Source of the DNA: a virus
Virus genome (UHGV): UHGV-1543744
Length of the DNA: 23,427 bases
Strand: one strand, 5' to 3'
Part shown: piece after piece, positions 1 through 20,388 of the stretch
How positions within the stretch are numbered: position 1 is the stretch's first letter
Layout of the letters: each line of letters begins with the position of its first letter
The notes under the pieces: generated by a model
The model's database searches: none
The model's input: only the letters and a program-made list of their open reading frames with translations
What the model was told of the DNA's origin: nothing
Program-made: the position numbers and the translations under genes

Positions 1-259
1 AAGGAACGACTCTCTTTGTTCGAAAATCAAACAAAAAATGAGCAATACCCGACATTTGGGCAGAAAATTGGATGATAGTTTACCAGATTTTGCGACCATT
101 GTGGTGAGTCGATGCCGGAAATGGGGAAAAAGAGATGCGCTTTAGTCTGAAATAGTTGACTTAGTCCCTTATTGGCGATGTGGTTTTTGTTTTACCTGTC
201 TGTCAGGTGGCAGCAAAAAGCAACTTTCCAGTTTTTACGCTGATTCAGATTTTAGCTAT

Positions 260-284
260 AAAAAAACCCGCCGAAGCAGGTTTT
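260..284 (-). terminator. Rho-independent terminator downstream of the lipoprotein gene
   Basis: Minus-strand reading AACCUGC-UUCG-GCGGGUU followed by a U7 tract: 6-7 bp stem with one G-U pair, UUCG tetraloop. Sits about 15 nt after the stop of CDS 298-975. The plus-strand reading is also hairpin plus TTTT, so it may act in both directions. Confidence 0.6.
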
Positions 285-297
285 AATAAATTATCTA

Positions 298-975
298 TTA
301 TCTAAAGTTACTTATTACTCGATACCTTATGCTTTGGTTACTCGCATCAAGTACTTCGAATTTAGCGCCTTTATAGCCAATTGTTTTAGACTCCGCGAGA
401 TCATACTCAACATCGTTGTTGAAGGCCGGGCGCGCTGTATTCGCTGAAAATTCACGATATCCAATGTTGATTTTGTTTCCGACCCTTCCGTTGTAAAGCA
501 GAGCTTGCTGGAAAGATGAGTCACCACTGATGTTCAGATTAACCTTTTCGATCGGCATGTTGGTTTCACAGGTGGTAGCGCCAAAAACTGTTATTACACA
601 TAAGGCATTATTTTTCTTTTCTACCATGATGCCCTGCCACATATCGGCAAGAGCTGCCTTTTCCACATTGGCTGAATCAGCACCGTTTGTGAGAAAGTAA
701 TAATCTGCCTTGTTATCCTCACCAACCTTTTTCAGCATCCCCGGAGTAATCGTATAAGCCCAGGAAACTCTCGCGGGAGCATTAACCTTCAAACCTTCGA
801 ACTTCTGTGACTCACCCTGCTTAATCATCGAATCACCGACATAAGCTGTATTAATGCTTCCTACAGGAGGCTCACTATAACTTTCTGTTTTTGGTAAATA
901 ATTATACTTTGGAGATGTACATCCCCCGAGTAAAAGAGCCATGCCGACAACTGAATAAACTGTTAGAATTTTCAT
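298..975 (-). CDS. Outer-membrane lipoprotein, unknown function (possible moron/cargo)
   Basis: Start moved to ATG at 975 (MKILTVYSVVGMALLLGGC...), giving a signal peptide with lipobox LGG-C and Thr at +2. The ORF-track start at 1017 is an upstream extension. Visibly more AT-rich than the structural genes, and followed by its own terminator. No recognisable family. Confidence 0.65.
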   Translation of the reverse strand: MKILTVYSVVGMALLLGGCTSPKYNYLPKTESYSEPPVGSINTAYVGDSMIKQGESQKFEGLKVNAPARVSWAYTITPGMLKKVGEDNKADYYFLTNGADSANVEKAALADMWQGIMVEKKNNALCVITVFGATTCETNMPIEKVNLNISGDSSFQQALLYNGRVGNKINIGYREFSANTARPAFNNDVEYDLAESKTIGYKGAKFEVLDASNQSIRYRVISNFR

Positions 976-1007
976 ATCCCTATTCCCATCATTAAATAAT
1001 CGGACTA

Positions 1008-1035
1008 ATCCTACCAAGAATCAGCAAAACGACAA
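1008..1035 (-). promoter_or_regulatory. Possible sigma70-like promoter for the lipoprotein gene
   Basis: Minus strand has TTGTCG, a 16-nt spacer, then TAGGAT about 30 nt upstream of the ATG at 975. Weak match to consensus, read by eye only. Confidence 0.2.
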
Positions 1036-1056
1036 AACCCGTACTTAAGCTGGCTA

Positions 1057-2838
1057 TTAGCCCCCCATACCAAACCGGGTGTAACCAACGTCGTGATTCA
1101 CGTCGATACCACTGGAGCGGGTATCGGTCACCCGCATCCAGGGAGGCGCATCCTTAAACGAGACCGTAATCTCGCCTTCAGCCTTCTTCGGCGCAGCCTG
1201 AACTATCTGATACGGATTGTATCCCTGAGCAGAAACGCCTGTACCGTACGCCCCATAGCCACCGCCCCCCCACTGAGTCGCATTGGCTGCAACCACCGTG
1301 TCGCTGGCACCATCAGTAAACCATTCAATAATCGGCTTCAGCTTGTCCCACATATCCTGAAACCACTTAACAACCGGCCCCCAGTTATTGATCACCATCC
1401 CCAGCGGCGACCAGGCAAAAACTTTCTTAAGGAGTTCCCAGCCAGCCTCAAAATAAGGACCAATGGTTTCCCAGAGTTTCTTAAAATAAGGTCCGACAAC
1501 ATCCCAGTTAGTGATAATTAATCCCGCAGCCAGGGCTATCGCCGTCGCAATCATGCCAATCGGCGTCATCGACATGATCCTGCTGACAATACTGATGGCA
1601 CCGCCAACGCCCATCAATCCCAGTTTCAGAATCGCAAGACCGGCAGCAAGCCCGACGACGCCGCGAATAACCCGGGGATTTTCATCCGCAAACTTCGTGA
1701 ATTTTTCCCCCAACTCCCCCAGCCATTGCGTGATATTTTTGGCGTCACCAGAAAATGCGCCGCCAATAGCCGCAAGGCCGTTAGTTGCGGTCCCCGTCAT
1801 TGCCTCCCACAGGTTGGACAGCGTACCAAGCTGTGCCTGAACACGTTTATTCAGGCTGGCCTGTTTATTCATCTTCTGCTGGATCTGATCGTAGCCATCC
1901 TTTCCTTTATCGATTAGTGCATTGACCACCTGAAGGGTTTCGGCATCATCACCAAATATTGCCTTAAGTACACCTGTTCGCTTAACGTCGGTCAGTTTTC
2001 GCAGCTTTGCCAGTTGCCTGAACATGTTATCAAGACCGCCAAAACTTCCTTTGCCGTCAGTAAAATCGAGCTGTACCCCGAGTTTCTGGCGGGCCATGAC
2101 TTTATTGACGTCCCTGATTTTCTTAACGCTTAATCCGGACTGGATAACTTTTCGCAGGGCATTACCTGCCGACTCCCCGTTCATCCCCATCTGATCCATC
2201 ATGACGCTGATGGGGGCAAGGCTCTGTGCAGCCTGAAGACCGTCCTTGTTCACCATCTTCAGAACAGAACTGGTTTTAGTGAAGAAGGACAACATGTTGG
2301 TATCGTCAACGCCCAGATAAAACGCCTTCTGGATAGTGTCGAACAGCCCCATCATGTCTTCTGACGCCGTTCCGGTAGCATCCTGCATCTTTGCAGCAAA
2401 CTCAGCAGCCGCTTCCGGTGTTTTTTTCAGTTGTACCGCAAGATAAGCTGTCGCTTTACCCACACCACCCAGAATGTTTTCTGCCGGGATCCCCTGACGC
2501 ACCAGCATCTGCATCATGTTCTGGAAATCAGCCGTTGTACCGGGTAGCTGGTTACCCAGGCCAATAGCCAGTTTATTGATGTCCTGAAAGCTCTTTCCAA
2601 CCTCGCCGTTCGCATCCATCATGGCGACTTTCAGCCCGGTAGCGGCGTTTTCCTGATCGGCATAAGATTTCAGGGAAAGCGTCAGACCCGCTGCCAGTCC
2701 TCCACCAAGCGCCAGCCCACCCTGTGACGCTTCTTCCGCCTGGCGTTTAAATCCCCGGATTTTCTTTTGCATTTTCGACAGCGCGGGAGAAAGCCTGTCG
2801 ACACCGGTGATCAACGCCTTAAGCTCAAATTCAGCCAT
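1057..2838 (-). CDS. Tail tape measure protein
   Basis: 593 aa, directly downstream of the frameshifted chaperone pair. Ala/Gly/Leu-rich helical N-terminal half, a central hydrophobic segment, and C-terminal Trp/Phe-rich periodic repeats (GPYFKKLWETIGPYFEAGWELLKK...WFQDMWDKL). ATG start with AGGAGA Shine-Dalgarno. Confidence 0.7.
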   Translation of the reverse strand: MAEFELKALITGVDRLSPALSKMQKKIRGFKRQAEEASQGGLALGGGLAAGLTLSLKSYADQENAATGLKVAMMDANGEVGKSFQDINKLAIGLGNQLPGTTADFQNMMQMLVRQGIPAENILGGVGKATAYLAVQLKKTPEAAAEFAAKMQDATGTASEDMMGLFDTIQKAFYLGVDDTNMLSFFTKTSSVLKMVNKDGLQAAQSLAPISVMMDQMGMNGESAGNALRKVIQSGLSVKKIRDVNKVMARQKLGVQLDFTDGKGSFGGLDNMFRQLAKLRKLTDVKRTGVLKAIFGDDAETLQVVNALIDKGKDGYDQIQQKMNKQASLNKRVQAQLGTLSNLWEAMTGTATNGLAAIGGAFSGDAKNITQWLGELGEKFTKFADENPRVIRGVVGLAAGLAILKLGLMGVGGAISIVSRIMSMTPIGMIATAIALAAGLIITNWDVVGPYFKKLWETIGPYFEAGWELLKKVFAWSPLGMVINNWGPVVKWFQDMWDKLKPIIEWFTDGASDTVVAANATQWGGGGYGAYGTGVSAQGYNPYQIVQAAPKKAEGEITVSFKDAPPWMRVTDTRSSGIDVNHDVGYTRFGMGG

Positions 2839-3249
2839 GTGTGCGTTTCTCCTGCTCTATCCTGTTTGCCTGACTGACCAGTAAGGGAATTTCACTGATC
2901 GGCATATTCAGCAATTCGAAAGGATTAATGCGCCAGTAGCTGGCGCAGTCAAAGAAGCGATCAGTGAGGTATTCAGCCGTCAGGCCTGGAGGAAAAAACC
3001 AGCCACAAGCCACGCCGCTGCATTCAGGTCTGCCGGAGACATCTGGTCGACAGAGCTTTGCGGCACTTTCGCCAGCCGCACAATGTATTTCGACACCACA
3101 TGCGCCAGAAGTCTGACTGACTCATCCTGATTCATCTGGTAGGGATACCCCAGCTCGCGGACATCCTTCCCGGTGGGTTCATCAAACTCCAGTACGGAGA
3201 GTGTCTCGCCATGAGCAGTAATCGGTTTCTTTAACTCAAGCTCTTTCAT
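2831..3249 (-). CDS. Tail assembly chaperone, predicted -1 frameshift fusion product (gpE+E' / G-T-like)
   Basis: The -1 frame ORF 2831-3013 overlaps the 3' end of the chaperone ORF. A shift at the T_TTT_TTC heptamer continues ...FFPPGLTAEYLTDR... exactly as the downstream ORF reads. The extension stops within a few nt of the tape measure start. Confidence 0.5.
2980..3249 (-). CDS. Tail assembly chaperone (P2 gpE / lambda gpG-like), frame-0 product
   Basis: 89 aa between tube and tape measure genes. Start overlaps the tube stop (TAATG). Ends ...AAWLVAGFFLQA, resembling P2 gpE-type chaperones (from memory). Contains a slippery heptamer near its 3' end. Confidence 0.65.
   Translation of the reverse strand: MKELELKKPITAHGETLSVLEFDEPTGKDVRELGYPYQMNQDESVRLLAHVVSKYIVRLAKVPQSSVDQMSPADLNAAAWLVAGFFLQA
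2992..2998 (-). other. Programmed -1 ribosomal frameshift slippery site (T_TTT_TTC)
   Basis: Plus-strand GAAAAAA is the minus-strand TTTTTTC, in X_XXY_YYZ register relative to the chaperone frame (GGT TTT TTC). Placement is the conserved one for tail chaperone frameshifts. Confidence 0.55.
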
Positions 3250-3605
3250 TACTGGTAATCCCCTTCTTCACCGTGGAACTCAAGATCAACCGTGCCTTCT
3301 TCGGCATTATGGTTCGCTTCGCCGTGCAGCCAGGCAGACGACAGTACATAGACCTGACCGTTCGCCAGCTCGGCAGTGATGGTCATCTCATCAGACGAGG
3401 TGATTTTGCTTACCGGAAAATTCTTCGGCACCTTGAAGGTCCCTTTGACATAAGGCGCACGGTGAGTTTCCTTGCGGTCCACAGAACCGTCCAGGCCGAT
3501 GATGTCATCATTGACCGTCCTGTTCATGGGCACCTCAATGCCGCCGGTCAGCGATAGCTGCTGACCGTCAATTTTGAAATAACAGGTTCCCCCGATACGG
3601 GCCAT
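3249..3605 (-). CDS. Tail tube protein (Mu gpM-like size class)
   Basis: 118 aa, immediately downstream of the sheath gene with a 1-nt overlap, and upstream of the chaperone. This is the conserved sheath-tube-chaperone-tape measure order of contractile tails. Confidence 0.65.
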   Translation of the reverse strand: MARIGGTCYFKIDGQQLSLTGGIEVPMNRTVNDDIIGLDGSVDRKETHRAPYVKGTFKVPKNFPVSKITSSDEMTITAELANGQVYVLSSAWLHGEANHNAEEGTVDLEFHGEEGDYQ

Positions 3606-5101
3606 TATGCAGACTCCTCTGAATACTGAAGACGGAACTGGTTAACCACGGCAAAAACACGCAACTGGTTAACATAGTCAGGCGGGAACAGCGTGTTCAG
3701 GCGGTTCGGATCGCTGGCATCACGCTCCACAACCAGGTACTGCTTAAACAGTTCGTAGTTTTCCACGATCCCCGCACGCTCAAGCTGACGGTAGGTTGCC
3801 AGCAGTTCCCCTTTGATTACCGCCGGGGTGACAATCGCCTGACCGGGACCAAAGCGGGTACCGTCGCTGGCAAGCTTGTGACGCCCGTACTTACTGGTAA
3901 TGACGGATTTCAGTTTGCGCAGTACATACGCACTGGTATGCAGCGTCTCGCTGTCGAGGTAGCTGTTATCCGCAACCCCGTAAGCATTTTTCCTGTACGT
4001 GGTGACATCACGCTGAATGCGCAGCACCCCGCTTTCGACATACGCCGTTGCCACGCCATGAGACAGCAGGGTCTGTTGCTCGGTCATCGTGAACCGTTTC
4101 CCCTTCGGCGCAGGCAGCATACCCACCAGCTCACCGGTCTGCGTGGGACGTGCCGGATCGTTGCGGATAAACACCGCTGCGCGGGCGGTACGGCTTGCCG
4201 CCAGCTCATCGGCAGGCGTCTGGGTGTCTTTTTCGTACCCAGCCAGGGTAATGTGCTGCTGGTTAAACTGGTCACCTGCGGTCACCAGTTCTGACAGCGT
4301 GCCGATCTTTGCCGTATACACATGACCATACAGCTGACGCGCATAGCTCCAGCGACCGCTGGTATCGTTCATCTCGGTCACCAGCGTGTTAACGGAGGCC
4401 GTGTCGTTGAACGGCAGGCCGATATAATCAAACGGCTCATCCGCCATTGCAGCCACCGCGCCGGTGAGAACAGGAGAGCCCGTTCCGGCGGTCCCCGTCG
4501 CCACGGCAATCTGTACGCCCGCAGGCAGCACTTCGCCCCCACCAAAGCCGTAGTAATTGAGGCTGACAGGAATTTCATTCCCGCAAAGCCCCTTATGACG
4601 CGCGGTCAGTGTGACCACGCCTGCCGAAGATGAGGCCGTAAACGGCAGGGCCGGAACGGCATTGATGGCATCCTGGATACTGCTGGCAATCGTCGTGACG
4701 TTATCGCCGTTGGTCACCGGTGCCTGCACGCGGGTACGTCCCACATACACATTCACCGTGCCGGTTTCGGTTGCTGCTCCGGTCACCGTCAGCGTAACCG
4801 TTGCCGCCGCGCCTGTGGCTTCCGGAACGGCAATCACATACAGCTCGCCAAACGGGTCGGTCTGGCGATAAGCCTCGACCATACGCGCCAGCTGACTTCC
4901 CGCACCACAAATCTGGCGTGCATAGTCTGCCGACGGCATCAGCACCAGACTGTTGGCAACAATCTCTGCACCGTTATTGGCGTGACCAATCAGCAACGAT
5001 GCCCCGCTGTCCTGTGCAGTATTCGCCGCCGAGTTATCCATTTCCGCATAAAACAGCGGAACCAGCGTATTCGACGGAATGGTGTTAAAGCTTATCGTCA
5101 T
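3605..5101 (-). CDS. Tail sheath protein
   Basis: 498 aa, first gene of the sheath-tube-chaperone-tape measure block. Size and Thr/Ala/Gly/Val-rich composition fit Mu-type sheath proteins. ATG at 5101 with AAGGTG Shine-Dalgarno. Confidence 0.75.
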   Translation of the reverse strand: MTISFNTIPSNTLVPLFYAEMDNSAANTAQDSGASLLIGHANNGAEIVANSLVLMPSADYARQICGAGSQLARMVEAYRQTDPFGELYVIAVPEATGAAATVTLTVTGAATETGTVNVYVGRTRVQAPVTNGDNVTTIASSIQDAINAVPALPFTASSSAGVVTLTARHKGLCGNEIPVSLNYYGFGGGEVLPAGVQIAVATGTAGTGSPVLTGAVAAMADEPFDYIGLPFNDTASVNTLVTEMNDTSGRWSYARQLYGHVYTAKIGTLSELVTAGDQFNQQHITLAGYEKDTQTPADELAASRTARAAVFIRNDPARPTQTGELVGMLPAPKGKRFTMTEQQTLLSHGVATAYVESGVLRIQRDVTTYRKNAYGVADNSYLDSETLHTSAYVLRKLKSVITSKYGRHKLASDGTRFGPGQAIVTPAVIKGELLATYRQLERAGIVENYELFKQYLVVERDASDPNRLNTLFPPDYVNQLRVFAVVNQFRLQYSEESA

Positions 5102-5263
5102 CGGTGTTCACCTTTTTATTCACGCGCCGGATATCACCCGCTGCTTCACGGCGCAGCCAGTAGTTGTTCTCGTCAACATTTCGCCCTTCGGCGGGCAAAA
5201 GGTCACCGCGGGCAGGGTCAGGCACTGACCGCCCTTTAACAGGTTTCACAAACATGAAGATTC

Positions 5264-5824
5264 TCAGGAAGGAAGGGTTATTTCGGTGTGATGTTCGATA
5301 TCGCCGTCAGGCCCGTTACCGGGATCGAGATAATCAACATCAATCGCCAGCGTTCGCAGTTCATCCAGACTGTTCAGCTCATCCTGCTGGCGGGTATCGT
5401 CTTCGGTCAGCTCGCTGATGACCGAAAAATCGAACTGATAAATCAGCTCATGACGATTCAGATCCAGCAGCGTGCCGCCGTCATAGGTAATCGGGTTACC
5501 GCACGCTTCCGGGTTCCAGCCCAGCAGGGCCTTAAAGAGCATCTGCCGGACATCGTCCACCACATCATACGAGGCAAACTGACCGCGCTCATCACGCCCG
5601 TTACTCAGTATGACAACCACGGAGAAGCCCTCTTTCAGCTCCTGCCAGTAGTCGGTCTGGCTTTTGTTTTCTCCCGGAGAGTCATCACCCGGTACCACAT
5701 ACGCCGCCGGGAGTTTCAGCTTTCCGACCTCCGGCAGATTTTTGAACTGGGCCGCGCCTGCAACCCGGTTTTCAAAATACGGGCAGCGGGCACGCAGCGC
5801 AGCAATAACAGGCGTCAGTTTCAT
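5264..5824 (-). CDS. Putative neck / tail-terminator or tail-completion protein
   Basis: 186 aa, ATGA overlap with the upstream gene, placed between the head-completion genes and the sheath. Function is inferred from position only. Confidence 0.4.
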   Translation of the reverse strand: MKLTPVIAALRARCPYFENRVAGAAQFKNLPEVGKLKLPAAYVVPGDDSPGENKSQTDYWQELKEGFSVVVILSNGRDERGQFASYDVVDDVRQMLFKALLGWNPEACGNPITYDGGTLLDLNRHELIYQFDFSVISELTEDDTRQQDELNSLDELRTLAIDVDYLDPGNGPDGDIEHHTEITLPS

Positions 5825-6327
5825 CTGTGTCGTCGCTCCGGCTTCAGTGATTTACGCAATTCCCGCGCCAGAAAATAGCGTGTCCAGCTGCGGTTCTTTT
5901 CAAGAGTTTCCACCATAAAGTTATTACGTGGAGCCAGTCGCCAGCCGCTGCCACCGGATGCACCACGATGATGGCTGCGACGACGCTTTGCCCCTCGCCT
6001 CACGCCATAGAACAGAAAAGCCGGATAAAAATCACCGGTGATACGGCGGTTTCCCTCTCCATTACGCTGGTTAGGGGCTATACGTGCCATAAAACCAGGG
6101 CGATGTTTACTGGCTCTGGGTACCATGTAACCAATCGAACGAGCCAGGCGTCCGGTCTGATAACCGGGGTTTTCACCCGGTGCCGACCGCGCACGGCGCA
6201 TCACCAGCCGACGGGCATCACGCATATGACGCTGACCAATCGTGACAAACGCCCGCCTGACACGGGCGCGGTTAAAGCGCATCTCCGCGGGCTGCTGAAA
6301 ATCAACGTGCAAAAAGGAAGTCGTCAT
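5821..6327 (-). CDS. Putative head-tail joining / virion morphogenesis protein (HK97 gp10-like position)
   Basis: 168 aa, strongly basic and Arg-rich. ATG with GGAGG Shine-Dalgarno. Overlaps the upstream gene by about 26 nt. Confidence 0.4.
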   Translation of the reverse strand: MTTSFLHVDFQQPAEMRFNRARVRRAFVTIGQRHMRDARRLVMRRARSAPGENPGYQTGRLARSIGYMVPRASKHRPGFMARIAPNQRNGEGNRRITGDFYPAFLFYGVRRGAKRRRSHHRGASGGSGWRLAPRNNFMVETLEKNRSWTRYFLARELRKSLKPERRHR

Positions 6328-6712
6328 TGTTGCCTCCGTGACTCTGCCTACATTCGCCCAGCTCCGTACACTCCAGCAGCAGAAAGCGCCGCGCCCCGTT
6401 CAGATCGCGCTGACGTTTCACCCGGTACACACTGTCACCGCAGACCACCTCATAATCAGCGGTGATCCCCCGGCGGTAACGAATGGTGATGTAATGGGTG
6501 ATGGCGTCCCCGGTCTGCGCGGTTTCCTGCCAGGTGGTGGCACTGGTCTGGATAACCTTCGCCCATGTCCGGAACGTAACCGGGTATTGAGGCTCCACGC
6601 CAAAGTTATCCGCGGGCATATCCACCCGCTGGCGAATCAGGACGCGTTTATTCAGTTCGCCGGGGTCCGGCAGAATGTAGGTTGCGCTGGTCTGCGCCTG
6701 ACGAATTTTCAT
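6302..6712 (-). CDS. Putative head closure / head-tail adaptor protein
   Basis: 136 aa, ATGA-coupled to the upstream connector gene. Position and size match head closure proteins of HK97-like heads. Confidence 0.45.
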   Translation of the reverse strand: MKIRQAQTSATYILPDPGELNKRVLIRQRVDMPADNFGVEPQYPVTFRTWAKVIQTSATTWQETAQTGDAITHYITIRYRRGITADYEVVCGDSVYRVKRQRDLNGARRFLLLECTELGECRQSHGGNNDDFLFAR

Positions 6713-7032
6713 TGCGGAAAGTACCTGTACGGGCCGACAAGCCAGCCAAAACTCTGCGGCATGTCGAGTTTCTCCACTTCCGTAACCGACGAGCGGTTTT
6801 CGTAAAAATGGCTGATAAGCATCAGCATCCCCAGACGAATATCATCCGGCAGTTGCAGCCCGTCCGGATCGCTGTCCGGAATGGTTTCATCCGGAGCATA
6901 GAGCTTCCGGTTCAGATACGTTTCCGTCCGCTTTTGCGCCGCACAGGCCAGCAGTTGCAGATGGCGGTCATCAGCATCGAAATCCTCATCCAGCCGGAGT
7001 TGGGCTTTAATCTCTTCCATTGTCAGAAGCAT
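6709..7032 (-). CDS. Putative head-tail connector (gp6-like) protein
   Basis: 107 aa, acidic, second gene after the major capsid protein. GAGGG Shine-Dalgarno. Confidence 0.45.
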   Translation of the reverse strand: MLLTMEEIKAQLRLDEDFDADDRHLQLLACAAQKRTETYLNRKLYAPDETIPDSDPDGLQLPDDIRLGMLMLISHFYENRSSVTEVEKLDMPQSFGWLVGPYRYFPQ

Positions 7033-7034
7033 AC

Positions 7035-7235
7035 TCAGCCCTCTTTACTGGTCGTGGCTTTTTTCTCTTTTGTCGCTTTACTGCTTTTTGCACTGGTTCC
7101 GCGCTCTGCTAACCCGGCCTGAAGTGCAATCTCCTGCACCCGGGCAGGAAGCGCCCCGTCGTCATACTCACCGGCCCGAATGACCTCAACACGCATACCG
7201 TCCGGTGACCATTTCAGATCTTGTTTCAGGATCAT
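7035..7235 (-). CDS. Small Lys-rich protein, unknown (possible head-associated protein)
   Basis: 66 aa ORF directly after the major capsid gene and the GC hairpin. C-terminus is Lys/Ser/Thr-rich (SKATKEKKATTSKEG). Weak Shine-Dalgarno. Confidence 0.4.
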   Translation of the reverse strand: MILKQDLKWSPDGMRVEVIRAGEYDDGALPARVQEIALQAGLAERGTSAKSSKATKEKKATTSKEG

Positions 7236-7256
7236 GATTCTTCACCCGTCAGAACA

Positions 7257-7278
7257 GGGGGCGCGGTTCCGCGCCCCT
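7257..7278 (-). other. GC-rich stem-loop just downstream of the major capsid gene
   Basis: GGGGCGCGG-TT-CCGCGCCCC: 9-bp perfect G/C stem with a 2-nt loop, 7 nt after the capsid stop codon. No U-tract follows, so it is not a classical intrinsic terminator. Confidence 0.5.
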
Positions 7279-7284
7279 GAGTGA

Positions 7285-8490
7285 TTACGCCGCTGCAATC
7301 TTCAGCAGTTTGATGGCCTGCGAATCGACCAGCATCCCGCCGGTGCGCTTGGTGGTATAAAAACCGACAAACGGTTTATTGGTGTACGGGTCACGCAGAA
7401 TGCGGGTGCCGATACGGTCAACGATGGTGTAACCCCGTTTGAAGTTACCAAATGCAATGGCTTTCGCATCAGCGGCGATATCCGGCATCTGTTCGTTTTC
7501 AGCGATACCGTAACCCGCCAGAGAGGACGGCTGCCCCAGTTCCAGCCCCGGACGCCACAGATAGTTACCCTCGGTGTCTTTCAGCAGACGGATGGCAAAC
7601 AGGCTGTTGTTGTTCATCATGAACTTCGCGCCAGTGCGGTGTGCCTTACGCAGCGTGTAAATCAGTTTGATAATGGCGTCTGCGGTCACCGCGGTCGCTT
7701 CGCCGGATACAATATGCTGAAGTTTGCCGAACGCCCGGACCTTGTCGGTTTCATCGGTGGATTCATACGCCAGGAACCCTTTCGGCTTCTTGGTGCCATC
7801 GCCTGAGGTAAAGGCAATTTCTTCCTGTTCGGCAAATTCGGTTGCCAGCTCGCTGTTGATCCAGGCCTCCACGTTGAAGAAGGCATCGTCCAGCATTTTC
7901 TGGGTAGCCTGCGGGTTGCCGTAGATTTCCCCCATGAGAGGTTCAATCAGCTCCAGTCTGGAGGTGGCAGTCTGGGATCGCGTATCCGTTTCCCCCACCC
8001 ATCCGGAAGCCGTACCGCCCAGATTCACCAGTTTTTTGTAGTCGGAACCGCCAACGGTGATCACCGTGGCTTCCTGACGCATCACCACTTCATCTTTCAG
8101 CAGGTTAAGAATGTTGCGATCCAGTTCTTCCGGCACGGCATAGCCACCGTCTTCATCGGTGCCCACCTGCAATGCCTTGCGCTCCAGATCGCGCAGACCG
8201 TCTTCACGGCCTTTACGCAGGAAGCCCACAAACGCCTCTTTATGCTCGGTGGCCAGTTTATTTTGCGCACCACCTGCCGGACGTTTCAGCTCAAGCAGCT
8301 CTTTTTCAAGGTCGCTTTTGAGATTTTCCAGCTCGCTGAGTTTCCCGTTCAGGGTTTCCACCTGCCCGGCAAGTTTGCCTTTTTCCTGCTCAATCGCATC
8401 CACGCGCTTGTCGTTCTTTGCTTTGAAGTCGTCAAACTTCTGCTGCAGTTCCTGCGCGACCTGTTCGACATCTTTAATATCTACCGCCAT
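7285..8490 (-). CDS. Major capsid protein (HK97-fold type with N-terminal coiled-coil scaffold-like region)
   Basis: 401 aa, directly downstream of the prohead protease. N-terminal ~100 aa is a Glu/Lys/Leu-rich coiled coil, typical of HK97-type capsid delta domains. ATG with AGGAGA Shine-Dalgarno. Confidence 0.8.
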   Translation of the reverse strand: MAVDIKDVEQVAQELQQKFDDFKAKNDKRVDAIEQEKGKLAGQVETLNGKLSELENLKSDLEKELLELKRPAGGAQNKLATEHKEAFVGFLRKGREDGLRDLERKALQVGTDEDGGYAVPEELDRNILNLLKDEVVMRQEATVITVGGSDYKKLVNLGGTASGWVGETDTRSQTATSRLELIEPLMGEIYGNPQATQKMLDDAFFNVEAWINSELATEFAEQEEIAFTSGDGTKKPKGFLAYESTDETDKVRAFGKLQHIVSGEATAVTADAIIKLIYTLRKAHRTGAKFMMNNNSLFAIRLLKDTEGNYLWRPGLELGQPSSLAGYGIAENEQMPDIAADAKAIAFGNFKRGYTIVDRIGTRILRDPYTNKPFVGFYTTKRTGGMLVDSQAIKLLKIAAA

Positions 8491-8504
8491 CGTATTTCTC
8501 CTGA

Positions 8505-9155
8505 TTAGAAGTTCAGATTTTTCAGTGCATTCAGTGCAGAGCTCACATCCTCAGCGTCGCGCAGGGACAGTGCGCCATAGCCCCCGGCCATGAATGCTTT
8601 GGCCTGGGTACGGGAGAGTCCGACATCACGCAGGACTCTTTCGATTTTTTTCTGTTCGGGGATTTCCCCGCGGGCCAGTGCGTTCTTGACGTCGCTGATC
8701 CGCGCCTCGTCGTTAGACGGGAACGTCACCAGGCTGACTTCCCAGAGGTCGATTTCTTTCAGCAGAAAGGCTTCTTTGCTCCGGTCGTATTCCCAGTCTT
8801 TCAGGACGTACCCAATAGAAAGGCCGGTTAACGAACCGGCCTTCATGTGTGCATGTGCGCGTTTTGCGAGGGGATCATCATCAATAAGCAACCGTCCCCT
8901 GACGTAAAGCCCGACATCGTCTTCCTTCATTTCGGTGTAAACACCGATGGGTTCATCCATGCGGTGCTGCCAGAGCAGCGCAGGTAACGCTTTTCTGTCA
9001 CTCCACGCCCGCAGGGAAGCAGCAAATGCCCCGGACATCACCACATCATCGTGGCTGTCCTTTACACCAAAGACGGAGCCATACCCTTCAAACTCACCGG
9101 AGTCACTGACAGATTTCAGACTCAGCGGTACATCAAGACGTTGTTTCGTCTGCAT
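8505..9155 (-). CDS. Prohead protease (HK97 family-like)
   Basis: Positioned between portal and major capsid genes. Start moved to ATG at 9155 (MQTKQRLDVPLSL...), which has an AAGGA Shine-Dalgarno. The ORF-track start at 9191 has none and would overlap portal further. Confidence 0.7.
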   Translation of the reverse strand: MQTKQRLDVPLSLKSVSDSGEFEGYGSVFGVKDSHDDVVMSGAFAASLRAWSDRKALPALLWQHRMDEPIGVYTEMKEDDVGLYVRGRLLIDDDPLAKRAHAHMKAGSLTGLSIGYVLKDWEYDRSKEAFLLKEIDLWEVSLVTFPSNDEARISDVKNALARGEIPEQKKIERVLRDVGLSRTQAKAFMAGGYGALSLRDAEDVSSALNALKNLNF

Positions 9156-10374
9156 TGGCGTTATCCTTCTGCTTACCGGCCTTACTGCCATCGGAGGGTT
9201 TCGTGGTCATGTTCATCGGTGTGAGATAGACATCACCACCGGGACGCGGATTCATATCTTCCAGGTCGCGGCAGTCATTGGGAGAGTAAATTCCCCAGTT
9301 AATCCCGGTGGCGTAGGCTTCAAAACGGGACTTCATATCCCCGCGCAGTAACGCCCCGGCGTTAAATTTGGCGTAATAAACGCCCTGCTTACTTTTTCGT
9401 ACCAGTCCGGTGTTGATCCGCTGTTCGATGCGGGTCAGATACGGCACCAGTGAATAGTTGATAAATCCGAGCCCCAGTTCTTCGATATTGTTGAAGGTGG
9501 CGCGATCGGTGTTCTGCACCATGTGCAACGGCACCCGGAACAGACGACAGATTTCTTCAAGCTGAAACTTGCGGGTTTCCAGGAACTGGCTGTCCTCGGC
9601 GTTCAGCGCCATCGACTTCCAGTCCAGCCCCATCTCAAGGATCATCGGGCGGTGAGCATTACCAAGCCCGGTGTGACGCTCCTCAAAATCTTTCTTCAGG
9701 CGCTCGTAAGCCTGATCTGACAGCGTCTGCTCTGTACGCAACACACCCGACGTCACCGCGCCATTGCTGAACAGTCTGGCCCCGTGCTCTTCGGTCGCTG
9801 CCGCCAGCGATATTGCCTCGCGGGCATAGGCGATGGGATTCAGTCCCACCAGACCGTCCAGCGTCAGCGTGCGCACATGCCAGATATCTTCCTGGCTCAG
9901 TACATCCGTGGAGCCGTCCGGGAATGTGACCTGGTAAACCGGTTCCCAGCTACTGTTAAGCTTCGGTACCACACAACCTGGGTCGACGGGCAGCAGTTCA
10001 GCCACTTCGCCAAATGCTTTCACTTTGTAGGCGTAAAAGTTTCCCCGCAGGCACAGACAGGTGACCACCAGCTCCCAGAACTCCTGCGGCGTCATATAGC
10101 CATTGGGACGCGTGGAGATCAGCTTATGCAGACGTTCGCCGGTGGCTCTCTGTTTCAGGCTGCCGTTCAGGTGATACAGGTTGCAGGGCAACATCCCGAC
10201 CGACTCCGCCAGCACCCTGACGCAGGAAAAAACCGCCGTCAGTCGCATGGCCCGCTGGCTGCTGATCTGCTTTCCGGTATAGGTGTCATATGACAGCCCG
10301 ATAGCATCCGCCAGCTCTGCTGGCGTGGTCACCGGTGCGTCACTTTTTCGTTGAAATAATCCCGAAAAGAACAC
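9133..10374 (-). CDS. Portal protein
   Basis: 413 aa, immediately downstream of the large terminase and upstream of the protease. Start codon is GTG at 10374 with a strong GGAGGT Shine-Dalgarno 6 nt upstream. Acidic, Lys-rich C-terminus. Confidence 0.75.
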   Translation of the reverse strand: MFFSGLFQRKSDAPVTTPAELADAIGLSYDTYTGKQISSQRAMRLTAVFSCVRVLAESVGMLPCNLYHLNGSLKQRATGERLHKLISTRPNGYMTPQEFWELVVTCLCLRGNFYAYKVKAFGEVAELLPVDPGCVVPKLNSSWEPVYQVTFPDGSTDVLSQEDIWHVRTLTLDGLVGLNPIAYAREAISLAAATEEHGARLFSNGAVTSGVLRTEQTLSDQAYERLKKDFEERHTGLGNAHRPMILEMGLDWKSMALNAEDSQFLETRKFQLEEICRLFRVPLHMVQNTDRATFNNIEELGLGFINYSLVPYLTRIEQRINTGLVRKSKQGVYYAKFNAGALLRGDMKSRFEAYATGINWGIYSPNDCRDLEDMNPRPGGDVYLTPMNMTTKPSDGSKAGKQKDNANADETTS

Positions 10375-10556
10375 TATTTACCTCCGCCGACAGACGGCTG
10401 TGTACGGTCGAGATATCGCGCCACCAGCCACGACCAGAACAGGCACAGCGCCCCGGCAACAACAAACCCCGCCGGGGGATAAATCAGCCAGGCACCATAC
10501 GCCAGCAAAAGCGCACCCAGCACGCCCACCAGAGGCGCGAGAATCAGCATGATCAT
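10374..10556 (-). CDS. Small membrane protein with two predicted transmembrane helices and a charged C-terminus
   Basis: 60 aa with two hydrophobic stretches and a charged tail ([14 protein letters not shown]). ATG with GAGGT Shine-Dalgarno. Lies between the terminase and portal genes and overlaps the portal start by 1 nt. Confidence 0.5.
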
Positions 10557-10567
10557 AATTACCTCAG

Positions 10568-12301
10568 TTAAAGCGAGCGGATCCCGTAGGACTCAATGTG
10601 ATCAGACAGCGTGTCTTCTTTCTCGTACAGCATGGCTCTGCCAACCGCCATAATCAGCGCAACTGCACCATCAATTTTGTTTTCCGCCTGCTCTTTGACG
10701 GGCTTCACCACATCATCGTTACCCGGAATGGTTTTGCCGACCACATTGCCGATACACCAGGTCATGATGGGATTGCCGTCATGATGAAAGCGCTCCGATT
10801 CAATCGCCGCTTCCAGTTCTTTCATCGGATCGGACATGTTGGTGTAGTTCTGAATGATGGTGATGGGGTTCAGGTCTTCATCAGCAAGGTCATGCGACAA
10901 CCCGGTCGCCCCGAAGGGGTCGATGGGTGACTCACTGACCGGGCTGATTTTGTTCGCCGCTTTGGCCTCCTCGAGGATGTAGCGATAATCCACCTCTGCA
11001 CCATCGGTAACGGTCAGAACGCCCATTTCCACCCATTTCTGAAAGCGTTCGGCTGTCCGGCGATCTTCATTTTTCTCGACGCTGTACACCGTGTCATACG
11101 GTACCCAGAAGCGCGGAGCCACACTGTAGTAATGCGTTTTACCGTCAATCTCGCGGGTATAAAGTCGCGCCATGCTGTTCATATCCAGCTTACGCGCCAG
11201 GTCAAAGGCCAGAATGCACGGCTGCCCCTCGAACTGCTCAAGGGTCAGTGATTTATCCTCGCAGCTCTGCCAGCTCACCAGGTTGAAATACGCCGAACGC
11301 GCCGACACCCAGATATTGAGGTGTTTTGTTTTAAAGACGTTTGCCAGACGGGCGTTATTTTTCGCACGCTGCTGCTGACTTAACAAAAATTCGCGATAAA
11401 CCGACACGCCAATATTTGGATTGGCTTTTTCCAGCACCTGCGGGTCGGTCCAGTCGTCACCTTCATCAACGGTATAGATGATCCCGAACAGTTCATCGTT
11501 AGGCACCGAGCCGTTGAGCATCTCGATAACTTCCCGCCGCTTGTCGTAGCACGGCCCCTCAATGTTGTACCCGGCAGTAGTAATGGCCCACATCAGTGGC
11601 TGACGTCGCGCCCCCATCCCGGTAAGCATCGTGGTGTAAAGCGCATCGGTGGCGTGCTCGTGATATTCATCCACCACCGCACAGTGGGGTGATGATCCAT
11701 CACCGGGGTTACCGATCAGCGGTTCAAACCGCGCGCCATCCTCCGGACGGTTCATGTTTGAGGCGTTAACCTCAATCCCGAACGCTTCCGTCAGCATGGG
11801 TGTGCGTTTACACATCAGTCGCGCCGGGCGAAAGACTTCCCACGCCTGTTTCTCTGTCGTGGCACCGGAATACACTTCCGCGCCAAACTCGTTATCACAG
11901 GCAAAACAATACAGGGCAACACCGGCAGAGATTGCTGATTTGCCGTTCTTACGGGGGATTTCGGTATACACCTCCCGGAAGCGGCGCAACCGGGTGCCTT
12001 TATTGACCCAGCCAAACGCACAGCAGATCACAAATAGCTGCCACGGCTCCAGCGTGATGGGCATCCGTTTAAATGCCCACTCACCCTTGGTGTGCGGCAA
12101 CAGCTGAATAAATTTGGCGGCCCGTTCAGCCAGATCCTTGTCGAAGCGGTAACGAAACGACTTACTTTTTTCCGCCATCAGGTCATCAAGATGGCGCTGG
12201 CAGGCCTGAATCACAAACTGGCAGGCCACAATCTTTCCGCGCACGACATCCCGGGCATACTGATTGGCAGCATTTACGTTGGGGTAAGATTTCCGGCTCA
12301 T
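10568..12301 (-). CDS. terL: Terminase large subunit
   Basis: 577 aa, directly downstream of the small terminase subunit. Size and position fit; the NTPase and nuclease motifs were not aligned explicitly. Confidence 0.75.
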
Positions 12302-12314
12302 GATTCGATGATTT

Positions 12315-12800
12315 TCAGATTGTCAGAAACGGGTTAGTGGCTTTCTTCTTCCCCGCCAGGCCAATCAGACGCTGTCGGCTGCTGGGGTCGAGTCCGAGCA
12401 TTGCCCCCGTGCTGCTCATCTCGGACTCCTGTTCTTTTTTGGCGGTCAGCTCCGGATTTTTGACCATGCCACCCATTGCACCGGTGATGGTGTTACCCTG
12501 TCTGGCAATATTTTTCACGGCACGTCGCCAGAACTCATAGGCCACACACCACCGCTCAAGTACCGCCAGGTCAGTCACGCACAGCAGGCCCTGACCGCAG
12601 AGTTCTTTGGTTGTCAGTTGCCACATGATCGTGGCGAGAGGGAGATCTTCTTCAGCGAACCACTCCGGTGGCTCAACACCTTTGATGGGCGTAAAAACAG
12701 GTTCATCTTTATTCAGGGCTCGCTTGCCGGGGTTTCCGGCCAGCGCCTTGCGCGCCGTTGGCTTGGGGCGACGCCCGGAACGCCCCGCCGTTCCAGCCAT
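12315..12800 (-). CDS. terS: Terminase small subunit (P27-family-like)
   Basis: Gly/Arg/Lys-rich N-terminus ([29 protein letters not shown]) typical of P27-type small terminases. Start moved to ATG at 12800, which has an AGGAG Shine-Dalgarno 8 nt upstream. The ORF-track start at 12809 is a GTG abutting the Shine-Dalgarno. Confidence 0.7.
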
Positions 12801-13010
12801 ATGCGGCACTCCTGGTTAAATTTCATTTTTCGCGGGTATAAAAAAACGATGGGGCGGGCAGTCCCGGATAGTCAGGGCTGTAGAGATTTGACTACCCCCT
12901 CCCCACTGGATTCAGGTTACTGCTATTCCGTTAATCGCTGCTTACGGGGATAGCTGCGTTGTGATTTTGACCATTCAGGTCGCCGCTATTTCCTCACCGA
13001 TTGGGTGCTA

Positions 13011-13034
13011 CGCGTGCGCGTACTTGTCCCGAAA
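13011..13034. repeat. Box CGCGTGCGCGTACTTGTCCCGAAA upstream of terS, repeated at 19144-19380
   Basis: The 14-mer CGCGTGCGCGTACT is identical at 13011-13024 and 19144-19157. TACTTGTCCCGAAA is identical at 13021-13034 and 19367-19380. A 12-mer copy lies at 19263-19274. All copies are in the same orientation. Confidence 0.6.
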
Positions 13035-13076
13035 TACCAGAAACCGCCAGCCAGAGGATGATTTCCCTCTGGTGGT

Positions 13077-13358
13077 CTACCTTTGCCTCTTGCCGCCATT
13101 TAACCGGAAGGCGTTACCGTTCGGTTGCGCTATCCCCATGCGGTGTTGCGTTTCGGTAACAGCTTTATGCAGGTCGCCAAAGTCCTCAACCTTCACGGGC
13201 GGGCGCTTCACGTTCTCCAGACACGTTTCACGGCGGCGCTTTATCCATTCCCGATCATCGTCCTCGGTGCATAACAGCATGACTTCCATCCATCGCGCTG
13301 CGGCGCGTCGGTACAGCCCTTTTGCTTCCAGATCCTCGGCTTTACTGTCGTTTACCAT
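13077..13358 (-). CDS. Small putative transcriptional activator, PerC-like (tentative)
   Basis: 93 aa. N-terminal motif ...KAEDLEAKGLYRRAAARWMEVM... resembles the PerC/Pch family as I recall it; this was not verified by alignment. ATG with GGGGGAG Shine-Dalgarno. Last gene before the terS upstream region and followed by a hairpin (CCAGAGG-N9-CCTCTGG). Confidence 0.35.
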   Translation of the reverse strand: MVNDSKAEDLEAKGLYRRAAARWMEVMLLCTEDDDREWIKRRRETCLENVKRPPVKVEDFGDLHKAVTETQHRMGIAQPNGNAFRLNGGKRQR

Positions 13359-13360
13359 GT

Positions 13361-13831
13361 TTATCTCCCCCAGAATGGCGTTTCATCGTCGAATGGTGGG
13401 CGTTGGTCAAAATCATCAGGGGTATTATATAACTCCCATCCCGGCGCGGATTGTGTTGTGTGGCCCCTGCTGGCTCCGCTTGCTTTGACTGATTCGGCCC
13501 GCTTCCCGCCGGGGCGTACCGTTCTGGCGCTGATCACGCTGTCGGCTACTACCTGATAACCTTGCTGTGTACCGCCATCCTTGCCCGTCCACTGATTGAT
13601 CTGCATCGCTCCGGCAACACTGACTAAATCGCCTTTAACGTGTCCTGCCAGTGCGTCGGCCTGTTTGCCGAATGCCACCACGCCCAGCCAGAAAGTAACC
13701 TCTCCGCCCTCTGCTGCATGGCAGGGCAGTGCCACCGCTAACCGGCCCATTGCCATGCTTGTACCGTTTGCTGTGGTACGGGTCTGGGGATCTGCCACCA
13801 GCCGCCCGTATGCTGAAATTTGTGCTGTCAT
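13361..13831 (-). CDS. Single-stranded DNA-binding protein-like (OB-fold)
   Basis: 156 aa. Residue pattern W..FGK..A...KG..V.V.G.L..NQW...Y.VVAD is consistent with an SSB OB fold, and the C-terminus is acidic with a PF tip (DDFDQRPPFDDETPF...). ATG with GAGGAAA Shine-Dalgarno. Confidence 0.5.
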   Translation of the reverse strand: MTAQISAYGRLVADPQTRTTANGTSMAMGRLAVALPCHAAEGGEVTFWLGVVAFGKQADALAGHVKGDLVSVAGAMQINQWTGKDGGTQQGYQVVADSVISARTVRPGGKRAESVKASGASRGHTTQSAPGWELYNTPDDFDQRPPFDDETPFWGR

Positions 13832-14130
13832 AGATATTTCCTCATGTAGTCACTACCTCCGGGGATAATTTTCATTTCTTCCCTTAAAGGCCACTGCTCC
13901 GCCATTGCTGCGGTCGAGTGATTCCCGTCATCACGTCCGGCCTGTGCTGCCGTCCAGTGTGTTGCATATTCTGTAAATCCAATTTCTGCTGGCTGCCTCA
14001 TCCAGTGGGCGATCATCCTCAAGGTCATTTGCAGGCTTTGGGTGTCGCCCTGTAATGCGCGTTTGTCAGTAAACCCCTTCAATGCTTCACGCTCCTGATA
14101 GGTCATTTTCTGGCTGGTTTCTGTATTCAT
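13828..14130 (-). CDS. Hypothetical protein
   Basis: 100 aa, ATG with AAGGTGG Shine-Dalgarno, ATGA-coupled to the SSB-like gene. First gene after the iteron region. Confidence 0.5.
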   Translation of the reverse strand: MNTETSQKMTYQEREALKGFTDKRALQGDTQSLQMTLRMIAHWMRQPAEIGFTEYATHWTAAQAGRDDGNHSTAAMAEQWPLREEMKIIPGGSDYMRKYL

Positions 14131-14183
14131 TGCCCACCTTCGTTATAAGCTACCCCCCCCATAGAATCTTTTTGGGGGTGTAA

Positions 14184-14433
14184 TATCCCTACCAATCCCT
14201 ACTAACTGTCTCAGGCCACGAATGGCAAGGCTTTCAGACTGGTAGGCATTCAATTTTGTTGCCCTACATAACCCTACTTATCCCTACTAAATCACTTCAA
14301 CGGCATTTTACTGCCTGTTTTATTTGGTAGGGATATGTAGGGATAAGTAGGGATAAAAATATATATCCCTACCTAGTTTAAAGCCTTGCTACGTCTGGCC
14401 TCGTCTCGTTTTTAGTAGGGCAGTAGGGATAAG
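14184..14433. repeat. Iteron cluster, putative replication origin
   Basis: About 12 copies of the core GTAGGG/CCCTAC. Reverse copies lie at about 14187, 14197, 14262, 14272, 14282 and 14367. Three perfect tandem 10-bp units GTAGGGATA(T/A) lie at 14327, 14337 and 14347, followed by the AT-tract AAAAATATATAT (14355-14366). Further forward copies are at 14414 and 14423. The cluster is immediately 3' of the primase-helicase stop. Confidence 0.6.
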
Positions 14434-14449
14434 TGCCGCCGTAAAAGTT

Positions 14450-16891: not shown

Positions 16892-17225
16892 GGTTGCCTC
16901 CTGCCACGGTCGCGCCCATGTCTTTAACCATGCTTTGCCATATCTCACGCCCGACGTCAGTCAATCCGTCATTAGTGACGCAACGCTCAAGAAGCTCGAC
17001 CCCCACGGTTTCCCACTGCGGGTAGGACACTTTCATGGCTGCCAGTGTGTAGCTATCGATCAGGCTGCGAACGCCTTTTACTCCATTGACGATTTCCACA
17101 CGGACGGCGAGGCCGTCCGCATCAACCATGAAATAGTCACCGCCGCTGGTGGAGGTAATGTGGTTATACAGTGCCGACGCATACTTATTCGCCAGCGCAT
17201 TCAGTCTGAAATTTTTAGTAATCAT
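16884..17225 (-). CDS. Hypothetical protein
   Basis: 113 aa, ATG with GAGGGGG Shine-Dalgarno. Its stop overlaps the primase start by 8 nt. Confidence 0.5.
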   Translation of the reverse strand: MITKNFRLNALANKYASALYNHITSTSGGDYFMVDADGLAVRVEIVNGVKGVRSLIDSYTLAAMKVSYPQWETVGVELLERCVTNDGLTDVGREIWQSMVKDMGATVAGGNHA

Positions 17226-17234
17226 GTCGCCCCC

Positions 17235-20376: not shown

Positions 20377-20388
20377 TTTCAGTCTCCG

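Follow-up and report, generated by a model that had tools for sequence, protein, structure and literature searches.

The 23,427 nucleotides of UHGV virus genome UHGV-1543744 that we analyzed, referred to here as the window, contain close to their left end a gene for a putative lipoprotein that follows the tape measure gene of a phage tail module. The locus raises the question of whether this gene belongs to the phage or to the bacterial chromosome beside it and, if it belongs to the phage, what an envelope protein contributes there. The explanation that best accounts for the observations as a whole is that the gene is a moron whose product would be located in the envelope and would exclude other phages, and we put it forward tentatively.

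The lipoprotein gene and its predicted product

The features that define the gene and the N-terminus of its product are as follows.

298..975, minus strand: lipoprotein coding sequence, 225 amino acids, member of PHROG 1353 (from the ORF list)
919..975, minus strand: signal peptide (residues 1-18) and lipobox L16-G17-G18-C19, with Thr20 at +2 (read from the sequence)
977..981, minus strand: Shine-Dalgarno sequence AGGGA, ending one base before the ATG

The open reading frame begins with an ATG at position 975 and ends with a stop codon at 298-300. An alternative in-frame TTG at position 1017 would lengthen the product to 239 amino acids, but the ATG is preferred because of the starts of the homologues and the position of the Shine-Dalgarno sequence. 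In the closer homologues of the gene, the arrangement 'ATAGGGAT-ATG' is kept.

The N-terminus of the encoded protein reads MKILTVYSVVGMALLLGG-C19-T20 and continues as -C19-TSP. A sequence-only reading of this DNA had described an outer-membrane-type lipoprotein with an LGG-C lipobox and Thr at +2, and the alignments bear this description out: C19 is invariant in 39 homologues (alignment A1) and also in alignment A3, and at +2 almost every A1 homologue has T, A or S, while no aligned one has Asp. Under the Lol avoidance rule of Enterobacteriaceae, lipoproteins with Asp at +2 are not sent to the outer membrane. The protein is thus predicted to be exported and lipid-modified at Cys19 and, given that its +2 residue is Thr and not Asp, to be sorted to the outer membrane. 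An AlphaFold model of the protein is all-beta with a pLDDT of 86.9, suggesting that the mature lipoprotein forms a compact all-beta domain near the membrane, in which the invariant residues C126 and C136 are probably joined by a periplasmic disulfide.

The window is a mosaic and the gene is phage DNA

The sequence-only reading allowed that the gene might be a host gene flanking the element. Host DNA occupies the following part of the window.

1..256, no strand assigned: host chromosome, sspA-rpsI intergenic region (sspA promoter side), outside the element (matches to E. coli genomes)

The window consists of three pieces, namely host intergenic DNA, an SfV-like prophage and a satellite with a P4-family primase. 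Positions 1-284, which include the rpsI terminator, match 5,375 of 5,426 complete E. coli genomes at an identity of at least 95%, and in E. coli K-12 they lie between sspA and rpsI. The stretch from 257 to about 12904 is 99.8% identical to a gtr-carrying SfV-like prophage at argW in E. coli GDSC2239PM, and its identity to a comparable prophage at thrW in E. coli NT1F10 is 98%. Positions 12807-23427 are 100% identical to a second GDSC2239PM element, located between yicC and dinD, whose content includes an integrase, AntA, Ash, an Icd-like protein, a P4-family primase, SSB and PerC.

Host homology covers positions 1-284 and phage homology runs from 257 on, which places the switch inside the terminator. 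The left junction therefore falls within a 28-bp stretch common to phage and host (257-284, with exact identity over 257-277), and the right junction falls within a 49-bp identical stretch (12816-12864) upstream of terS. Searches for the left junction in IMG/VR, the JGI metagenomes and 5,426 complete E. coli genomes found no occurrence, and the right junction was not seen in the satellite contexts listed, which come from 28 contigs. A chimeric assembly is the more likely origin of the window, as opposed to a doubly rearranged genome. We also considered the 28-bp overlap as an att core at the rpsI terminator; this reading was rejected because intact prophages that carry the same sequence in the middle of the operon integrate at thrW or argW.

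The lipoprotein itself is found, identical in sequence, in 991 blocks of a public collection. Among the 24 longest contigs encoding it, ten annotated contexts were listed, and all ten show the order sheath, tube, tail assembly chaperone, tape measure, lipoprotein, DNA_circ_N and baseplate. The DNA circularization gene (Mu N-like, DNA_circ_N) is found 53 bp after the lipoprotein gene, as it is in the complete E. coli genomes inspected, and starts 12 bp past the T-tract of the terminator. Complete E. coli genomes carry the lipoprotein gene in 55 of 5,426 cases. Its chromosomal positions are many, its alleles fall into two groups (at least 99% and about 95% identity), and its annotation in the 55 is always 'hypothetical protein'. 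All of the E. coli contexts that were inspected are prophage tail modules. In intact prophages carrying the gene, the lysis cassette is located elsewhere.

These contexts bear on two proposals of the sequence-only reading. Its placement of the gene at the end of the tail operon does not hold, since genes for DNA circularization and baseplate proteins follow in the contexts examined and the end seen here is the junction of the window; as the window is chimeric or rearranged, this end is a trait of the window and not of the element. The proposal of a flanking host chromosomal gene draws on the fact that the lipoprotein gene is the last one before host DNA in the window. However, host homology exists only at 284 and below, the sspA-rpsI locus of E. 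coli K-12 has no lipoprotein gene, and the junction occurs in 0 of 5,426 genomes. Had the gene been a host gene, strains lacking the element should have it at a conserved locus, but only 55 genomes have it, at scattered positions and always between the tape measure and DNA circularization genes in the contexts inspected. We therefore discount a host origin almost completely. The lipoprotein gene is phage DNA and lies in the middle of an operon.

The gene has the anatomy of a moron

The following features surround the coding sequence.

1057..2838, minus strand: tape measure gene, 593 amino acids (Pfam PhageMin_Tail)
1008..1035, minus strand: candidate sigma-70 promoter, 8/12 to consensus, conserved upstream of homologues
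1008..1035, minus strand: promoter elements, namely -35 TTGTCG (1030-1035), a 16-nt spacer, extended -10 TG (1015-1016) and -10 TAGGAT (1008-1013)
257..284, minus strand: intrinsic terminator, a hairpin at 267-280 with a UUCG loop and a U7 tract at 260-266 (fold and shuffles)

As published, the hallmarks of a moron in the sense of Juhala and Hendrix are insertion between neighboring genes, deviant composition, a promoter and terminator of its own, and expression from the prophage (PMC3594210). Three features of the cassette correspond to these hallmarks: it is inserted between genes that are adjacent in SfV, its GC content deviates, and it has its own terminator. The sequence-only reading had called the gene AT-richer than the structural genes, in agreement with GC contents of 41.9% in the lipoprotein coding sequence, 52.4% in the tape measure gene and 55.8% across the head and tail genes. 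The 81-bp gap that it reported between the tape measure gene and the lipoprotein gene was likewise reproduced, with the end of the tape measure ORF at 1057.

The insertion is seen most clearly by comparison with SfV. Residues 1-509 of the SfV tape measure protein are identical to those of the window's protein, after which the C-terminus has diverged and the alignment contains a 20-aa gap. The last approximately 84 tape measure codons (about 1057-1311) are unlike SfV and accompany the lipoprotein gene, and DNA homology to SfV, SfII and SfI ends at window position 1295. On the other side, the DNA circularization protein is 99% identical in SfV, where its gene and the tape measure gene are 45 bp apart with no lipoprotein gene between them. 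The complete genomes of SfV, SfII and SfI in the phage collection are otherwise nearly identical, and all three are without the gene. Relative to SfV, the insert thus has three parts, namely the tape measure C-terminus, which has diverged and lost 20 residues, then the lipoprotein gene, and finally a new terminator. At the corresponding place SfV has a hairpin terminator that differs from this one, which indicates that a terminator after the tape measure gene predates the insertion.

The terminator of the cassette forms the hairpin CCUGC-UUCG-GCGGG, 13 bases 3' of the stop codon, followed by U7. Its calculated folding energy is -12.2 kcal/mol (z = -3.1 versus shuffles), in keeping with the earlier description of a strong terminator after the gene. 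The stretch at 257-284 is identical to the E. coli rpsI terminator in 27 of 28 positions, and the window has the phage variant (A) at position 278. A simple consensus scan overlooked the terminator at 260-280.

At the other end of the cassette, a consensus promoter scan upstream of the lipoprotein gene returned 0 sites at a cut-off of 9/12. We compared the DNA preceding the gene in 11 homologous cassettes, which encode proteins of 59-100% identity and whose contexts, assigned from ORF maps, are myoviral, siphoviral or other. A -35-like TTG lies 16-17 nt upstream of TAGGAT in nine of the 11 cassettes, and the extended -10 sequence TGnTAGGAT is present in eight. Homologues in different phages share the arrangement TTGnCn-16-TGnTAGGAT, while the DNA further upstream is unrelated. 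The element in the window, TGNTAGGAT, occurs there only once. This comparative evidence suggests that a promoter travels with the lipoprotein gene.

The description of the gene as a lipoprotein moron is thus well founded, given that it is AT-rich, has its own terminator, is preceded by a conserved promoter-like element and is absent from SfV, SfII and SfI. We conclude with high confidence that the cassette is a classic moron of an SfV-like temperate myovirus, horizontally acquired and consisting of a candidate extended -10 promoter, from which it would be transcribed independently, the lipoprotein gene and an intrinsic terminator. It occupies the space between the tape measure gene and the DNA circularization gene and came together with the variant tape measure C-terminus.

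A role in the phage's own lytic cycle, be it in tail assembly, lysis or infection, would fit the location of the gene on the same strand inside the late tail operon, where it would be transcribed with the tail genes, as well as its steady adjacency to tape measure genes. However, the signal peptide directs the lipoprotein away from the cytoplasm, the site of tail assembly, SfV, SfII and SfI do without the gene, and the gene has a promoter-like element and a terminator of its own. Moreover, the lysis cassette is found elsewhere in intact prophages, and other members of the family reside in an integron-like array and in non-phage loci. We regard a lytic role as very improbable. In particular, a role of the lipoprotein in virion structure or assembly is unlikely because the protein is exported, is dispensable in SfV, SfII and SfI, and is present outside phages.

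The lipoprotein belongs to a large and conserved family, PHROG 1353

The sequence-only reading had recognized no family for this protein and proposed searches for homology and structure. The homology searches placed the protein in PHROG 1353 with E = 8.5e-97, residues 1-225 aligning with profile positions 1-227 of 230, so the protein does have a family, although an uncharacterized one annotated as 'function unknown'. Scans against Pfam, NCBIfam and PADLOC found no family (0 in Pfam and in PADLOC-DB 2.0 at E ≤ 1). The structure searches were negative: fold searches of the model against the PDB and BFVD gave no match, and PDB sequences, searched with a profile, yielded nothing beyond noise (E > 0.5).

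A word-indexed search retrieved 1,068 relatives, and a profile search of 1.84 billion representative proteins retrieved 3,037 clusters at E ≤ 1e-3, nearly all of them single-domain proteins of about 225 amino acids; the family size of about 3,000 clusters refers to clusters at 50% identity. No additional Pfam domain was detected in longer relatives that were checked for extra domains. One sequence, P0157, has a capsid N-terminus fused to the C-terminal 146 residues of the lipoprotein and is probably a chimeric assembly. The named relatives among the matches listed are all called 'hypothetical protein' or 'lipoprotein'. A literature search that included STM2726, WP_040072272, EcHS_A0921 and prophage lipoprotein defenses found no characterized member of PHROG 1353. 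A paper on the Salmonella prophage transcriptome does not extend to Fels-2 in its coverage.

In species-representative genomes, the family ranges over Gamma-, Beta-, Alpha- and Deltaproteobacteria, Nitrospirota, Planctomycetota, Verrucomicrobiota, Omnitrophota, Gemmatimonadota and Bacteroidota, and identity to the E. coli lipoprotein across these diderm phyla is 40-50%. Relatives in phages of Acinetobacter, Moraxella, Klebsiella and E. coli are 45-50% identical. The PHROG 1353 members of Fels-2 (STM2726), Acinetobacter phage Ab1656-2 and Moraxella phage Mcat28 show tblastn identities of 28-46%, and the E. coli SfV-like variant was found by tblastn in no deposited phage genome at an identity of 60% or more.

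Across the 39 homologues, Cys19, Cys126 and Cys136 never vary, and neither do many closely spaced polar residues. The invariant polar residues gather in the C-terminal 70 amino acids, FQQxLxYxGxxGxKxNxxYRExS..ARPAFxNxVEYD, and Y173 and E175 at the core of this motif are kept in the most divergent members. The family is under strong purifying selection, and the invariant polar residues of the C-terminal region could belong to an enzyme or a ligand-binding protein.

Family members occur beside tape measure genes, in a probable integron array and alone

In Fels-2 and many Klebsiella P2-like phages, a relative with 28% identity lies between the gpA/DinI genes and the portal gene, and the Fels-2 relative directly adjoins AbiU (PADLOC E = 2.7e-112). 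In Acinetobacter phage Ab1656-2 and a Klebsiella aerogenes siphoviral prophage, the relative belongs to a cluster of morons that immediately precedes the tape measure gene, and in Moraxella phage Mcat28 it is located among the tail genes. A Geobacter relative comes after an integrase and is a neighbor of a type III-A retron. In Vibrio parahaemolyticus contigs, a relative is part of an array of short genes on the same strand that looks like, and probably is, a chromosomal integron cassette array. The relative is a solitary chromosomal gene in Photobacterium and many other species, and most family members in species-representative genomes lie beside ordinary housekeeping genes and not in phages.

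Of 51 IMG/VR loci whose flanking DNA is long enough, 39 have an ORF of 590 amino acids or more on the same strand within two genes of the lipoprotein gene; counted by clusters at 80% identity, the figure is seven of 11. Tape measure genes, recognized by their Pfam families (TMP_3, TMP_2 and PhageMin_Tail), make up at least 14 of 17 of these ORFs, the window's own included. For the species-representative genomes, we surveyed 147 immediate neighbors. The only recurring Pfam families among them were tape measure (five) and tail chaperone T (two), with all others occurring once, and no further conserved operon partner was found.

Adjacency to tape measure genes may itself be uninformative on function, as this position is known to tolerate morons in general, and Klebsiella phages have Arc, antirepressor and Bro genes there as well.

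The solitary copies on the housekeeping side fit a general envelope function equally well. The lipoprotein could be an accessory factor of the envelope that has nothing to do with phages, either an immunity protein or an inhibitor directed at envelope-targeting toxins or peptidoglycan hydrolases, with lysozyme, T6SS effectors and bacteriocins as conceivable targets, or one for stress or fitness; phages would then carry it for lysogenic conversion, as lambda carries Bor. The wide distribution of the family, with 40-50% identity kept across Proteobacteria, Nitrospirota, Planctomycetota, Verrucomicrobiota and Omnitrophota, is consistent with such a factor, as are the mostly solitary chromosomal copies beside unrelated housekeeping genes, the outer-membrane type of the lipoprotein and the many invariant polar residues, which suggest a conserved ligand or target. 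However, no cognate toxin or partner gene recurs among the 147 neighbors and no known immunity or inhibitor fold was matched. Serum resistance of the Bor/Iss type is implausible for Geobacter, marine Vibrio and hosts like them, and Pfam Lambda_Bor gave no match. On balance, we consider a general envelope factor, the chief alternative to exclusion, somewhat unlikely.

Comparison with known envelope proteins

In gene arrangement, one close likeness is to gp15 of HK97, the superinfection exclusion protein of Cumby et al. 2012. [quoted passage not shown] Both genes are horizontally acquired cassettes with transcription signals of their own, the promoter of the lipoprotein gene being a candidate, both are neighbors of a tape measure gene in the tail operon, both encode an envelope product, a predicted one in the case of the lipoprotein, and both are absent from close relatives. 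The slot of gp15, between tail chaperone and tape measure, is also occupied by the lipoprotein gene in siphoviral relatives, although in the window the gene is downstream of the tape measure gene and gp15 is upstream. Unlike the lipoprotein, gp15 is a small inner-membrane protein related to YebO and not a lipoprotein, and the two have no sequence relationship.

Ltp of Streptococcus thermophilus phage TP-J34 is likewise a prophage-encoded lipoprotein, and lipoproteins of this type mediate superinfection exclusion (PMC3952083). In contrast to the lipoprotein studied here, however, Ltp is surface-exposed and acts in Gram-positive hosts, and there is no sequence or PDB fold similarity between the two. 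Ltp is a helical protein of approximately 140 amino acids, and its gene lies in the lysogeny module. Bebeacua et al. are said to have found in 2013 that the target of Ltp is the tape measure protein of the incoming phage.

Llp of T5 and Cor of phi80, T1 and N15 are exclusion proteins and, like the present protein, lipoproteins of the outer-membrane type whose genes lie among or next to tail genes. Both are specific for FhuA and much smaller, the lipoprotein studied here being about three times the size of either. Lambda Bor/Iss and TraT are also outer-membrane lipoproteins, encoded by morons or plasmids, that alter the host surface, but they are unlike the lipoprotein in size, predicted fold and environmental distribution. 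Pfam returned 0 families at E ≤ 1 for the lipoprotein, and this excludes the Pfam families of Bor and TraT. The intact NT1F10 prophage has an iss gene at another site. The likeness to Llp, Cor and Bor that the sequence-only reading had suggested found no match by sequence or fold.

In exclusion by receptor masking, of the type known for T5 Llp or phi80/T1 Cor, the lipoprotein would bind and block the outer-membrane receptor of its own phage, which would guard lysogens against further phages and progeny against adsorption to debris. Like cor and llp, the gene encodes an outer-membrane-type lipoprotein from within a tail module, and it would be transcribed with the late genes as well. The searches argue against this relationship, with no family match in Pfam or NCBIfam and no fold match in the PDB. 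The lipoprotein family also spans hosts whose receptors presumably differ: identities of 45-50% are found across phages of Acinetobacter, Moraxella, Klebsiella and E. coli, and members exist outside phages too. The 40-50% identity kept across phyla with presumably different receptors would disfavor masking of one specific receptor, and we regard this mechanism as improbable.

Comparison with known exclusion and defense proteins, by PADLOC and by PDB and BFVD folds, found no similarity. Judged by its sequence and predicted fold, the lipoprotein falls outside the Llp, Cor, Bor/Iss, TraT and Ltp families and outside all PADLOC families.

Proposed function

By analogy, superinfection exclusion by the lipoprotein is plausible. 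The exclusion reading draws support from the moron anatomy, the export signature, the single-gene mobility, the adjacency to tape measure genes and the occasional defense-gene neighbors. Counting against it are the permissive nature of that position, the location of most chromosomal copies outside phages, the invariant polar residues and the negative comparisons with known exclusion and defense proteins. The lipoprotein would be expressed from the prophage and also during late transcription. From the envelope, we infer, it could protect the cell by blocking a generic entry step after adsorption, which is possible, though we would not call it probable. Such a block would interfere with the passage of the tail tip or the tape measure protein through the outer membrane, periplasm or peptidoglycan, and exclusion would be achieved without the masking of one specific receptor.

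In a broader form of this proposal, which we consider doubtful, PHROG 1353 would be an unrecognized, broad, single-gene envelope defense that blocks the tape-measure-dependent genome delivery of tailed phages. Such a defense would explain why tape measure genes of at least three families adjoin the gene and why members occur in an integron-like array and in defense-rich islands.

Significance of the family

The characterized exclusion lipoprotein morons are a known kind of protein: they are small, specific for a receptor or host, and narrowly distributed. The present family differs from them in being large, conserved across phyla, mobile as a single gene and without a relative of solved structure, and its only recurring neighbors are tape measure and tail chaperone genes. 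As a moron, the gene is ordinary; the family is unusual in its size, conservation, mobility, unmatched fold and link to tape measure genes. It is missing from Pfam, NCBIfam and PADLOC. Even if its function is not exclusion, PHROG 1353 would still be a sizeable family of envelope lipoproteins in diderm bacteria. If its members do block phage entry, they would constitute a widespread first-line defense that current defense-finding tools overlook, and predictions of host range for phage therapy in E. coli, Klebsiella and Acinetobacter would be affected.

Mosaic structure of the window

Comparison with the closest complete genome, that of E. coli GDSC2239PM, reveals that the window is a mosaic of three parts:

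1-284, sspA-rpsI intergenic DNA
257-12904, SfV-like prophage segment, from the region upstream of terS to the lipoprotein terminator
12807-23427, satellite with a P4-family primase, from its terS-like upstream region as far as the start codon of the integrase gene

These three parts map to three mutually distant loci in GDSC2239PM. Each joint between them falls within a short identical repeat, of 21-28 bp for the joint at 257-277 and of 49 bp for that at 12816-12864, and neither joint was seen in any other assembly that we examined. In addition, the end of the window coincides exactly with the ATG of the integrase gene. A real double rearrangement could be envisioned as the source of such a mosaic; however, it is more likely that the window is a chimeric assembly.

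The tape measure and lipoprotein genes

Residues 1-509 of the tape measure protein are identical to those of SfV, SfII, and SfI, whereas the last ~84 residues (window about 1057-1311) share only ~55% identity with the same phages and carry a 20-residue deletion. Therefore, the lipoprotein gene was gained as one block with the variant C-terminus of the tape measure protein. At the other end of the tape measure gene, a 60-residue ORF overlaps two genes, the tape measure gene at its start and the tail assembly chaperone gene at its 3' end:

2831-3013, minus strand, 60-residue ORF
2980-3249, minus strand, tail assembly chaperone gene (Phage_TAC_7)

This ORF is annotated as a separate hypothetical protein in some genomes, and it may be a frameshift extension of the tail assembly chaperone.

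Upstream of the lipoprotein gene, an alignment of homologous cassettes (A5) revealed a motif immediately 3' of the -10 element of the candidate promoter:

996-1007, minus strand, T(A/T)(G/A/T)TCCGAT motif in the 5' UTR

The motif is kept in most of the enterobacterial cassettes, and it could act in regulation or belong to the leader of the transcript.

The terminator of the lipoprotein gene (window 257-284) is matched at 27 of 28 nt by the E. coli rpsI terminator (4257-4284 of the K-12 locus, L002). For the lipoprotein allele of ~95% identity, the match to the rpsI terminator is unbroken over 27 nt, AAACCCGCTTCGGCGGGTTTTTTTATA (L023, about 5480-5510). This likeness could be the product of past exchange with the chromosome or of convergence toward an optimal terminator with a UUCG loop. 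SfV has a hairpin and T-tract of its own, CCCAC-TCCG-GTGGG-TTTTTT, between its tape measure and DNA circularization genes (L112, about 2164-2208), indicating that a mid-operon intrinsic terminator is ancestral in the SfV-like phage group. Q antitermination presumably allows transcription of the late tail operon to continue past such a terminator.

In Fels-2, the lipoprotein homolog STM2726 is adjoined by STM2723.1, which is annotated as hypothetical and is a full-length homolog of AbiU (PADLOC E = 2.7e-112; L007, 5946-7643). Separately, a 446-residue protein in the representative library, P0157, consists of an HK97-type major capsid N-terminus fused to the C-terminal 146 residues of the lipoprotein, and is probably encoded by another chimeric contig, one that includes part of the same prophage.

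The satellite and its putative helper phages

The satellite encodes an integrase, AntA, Ash, an Icd-like protein, a P4-family primase, SSB, and PerC, and its normal site is between yicC and dinD. It has sequence in common with the region directly upstream of the small terminase gene of the SfV-like phage:

12315-12809, terS
12816-12904, common sequence, consisting of 49 identical bp and ~40 similar bp

This common sequence probably represents a cos or packaging site. If so, satellites of this type would be packaged by SfV-like helper phages, the putative helpers being those with HNH and HK97-type terminases.
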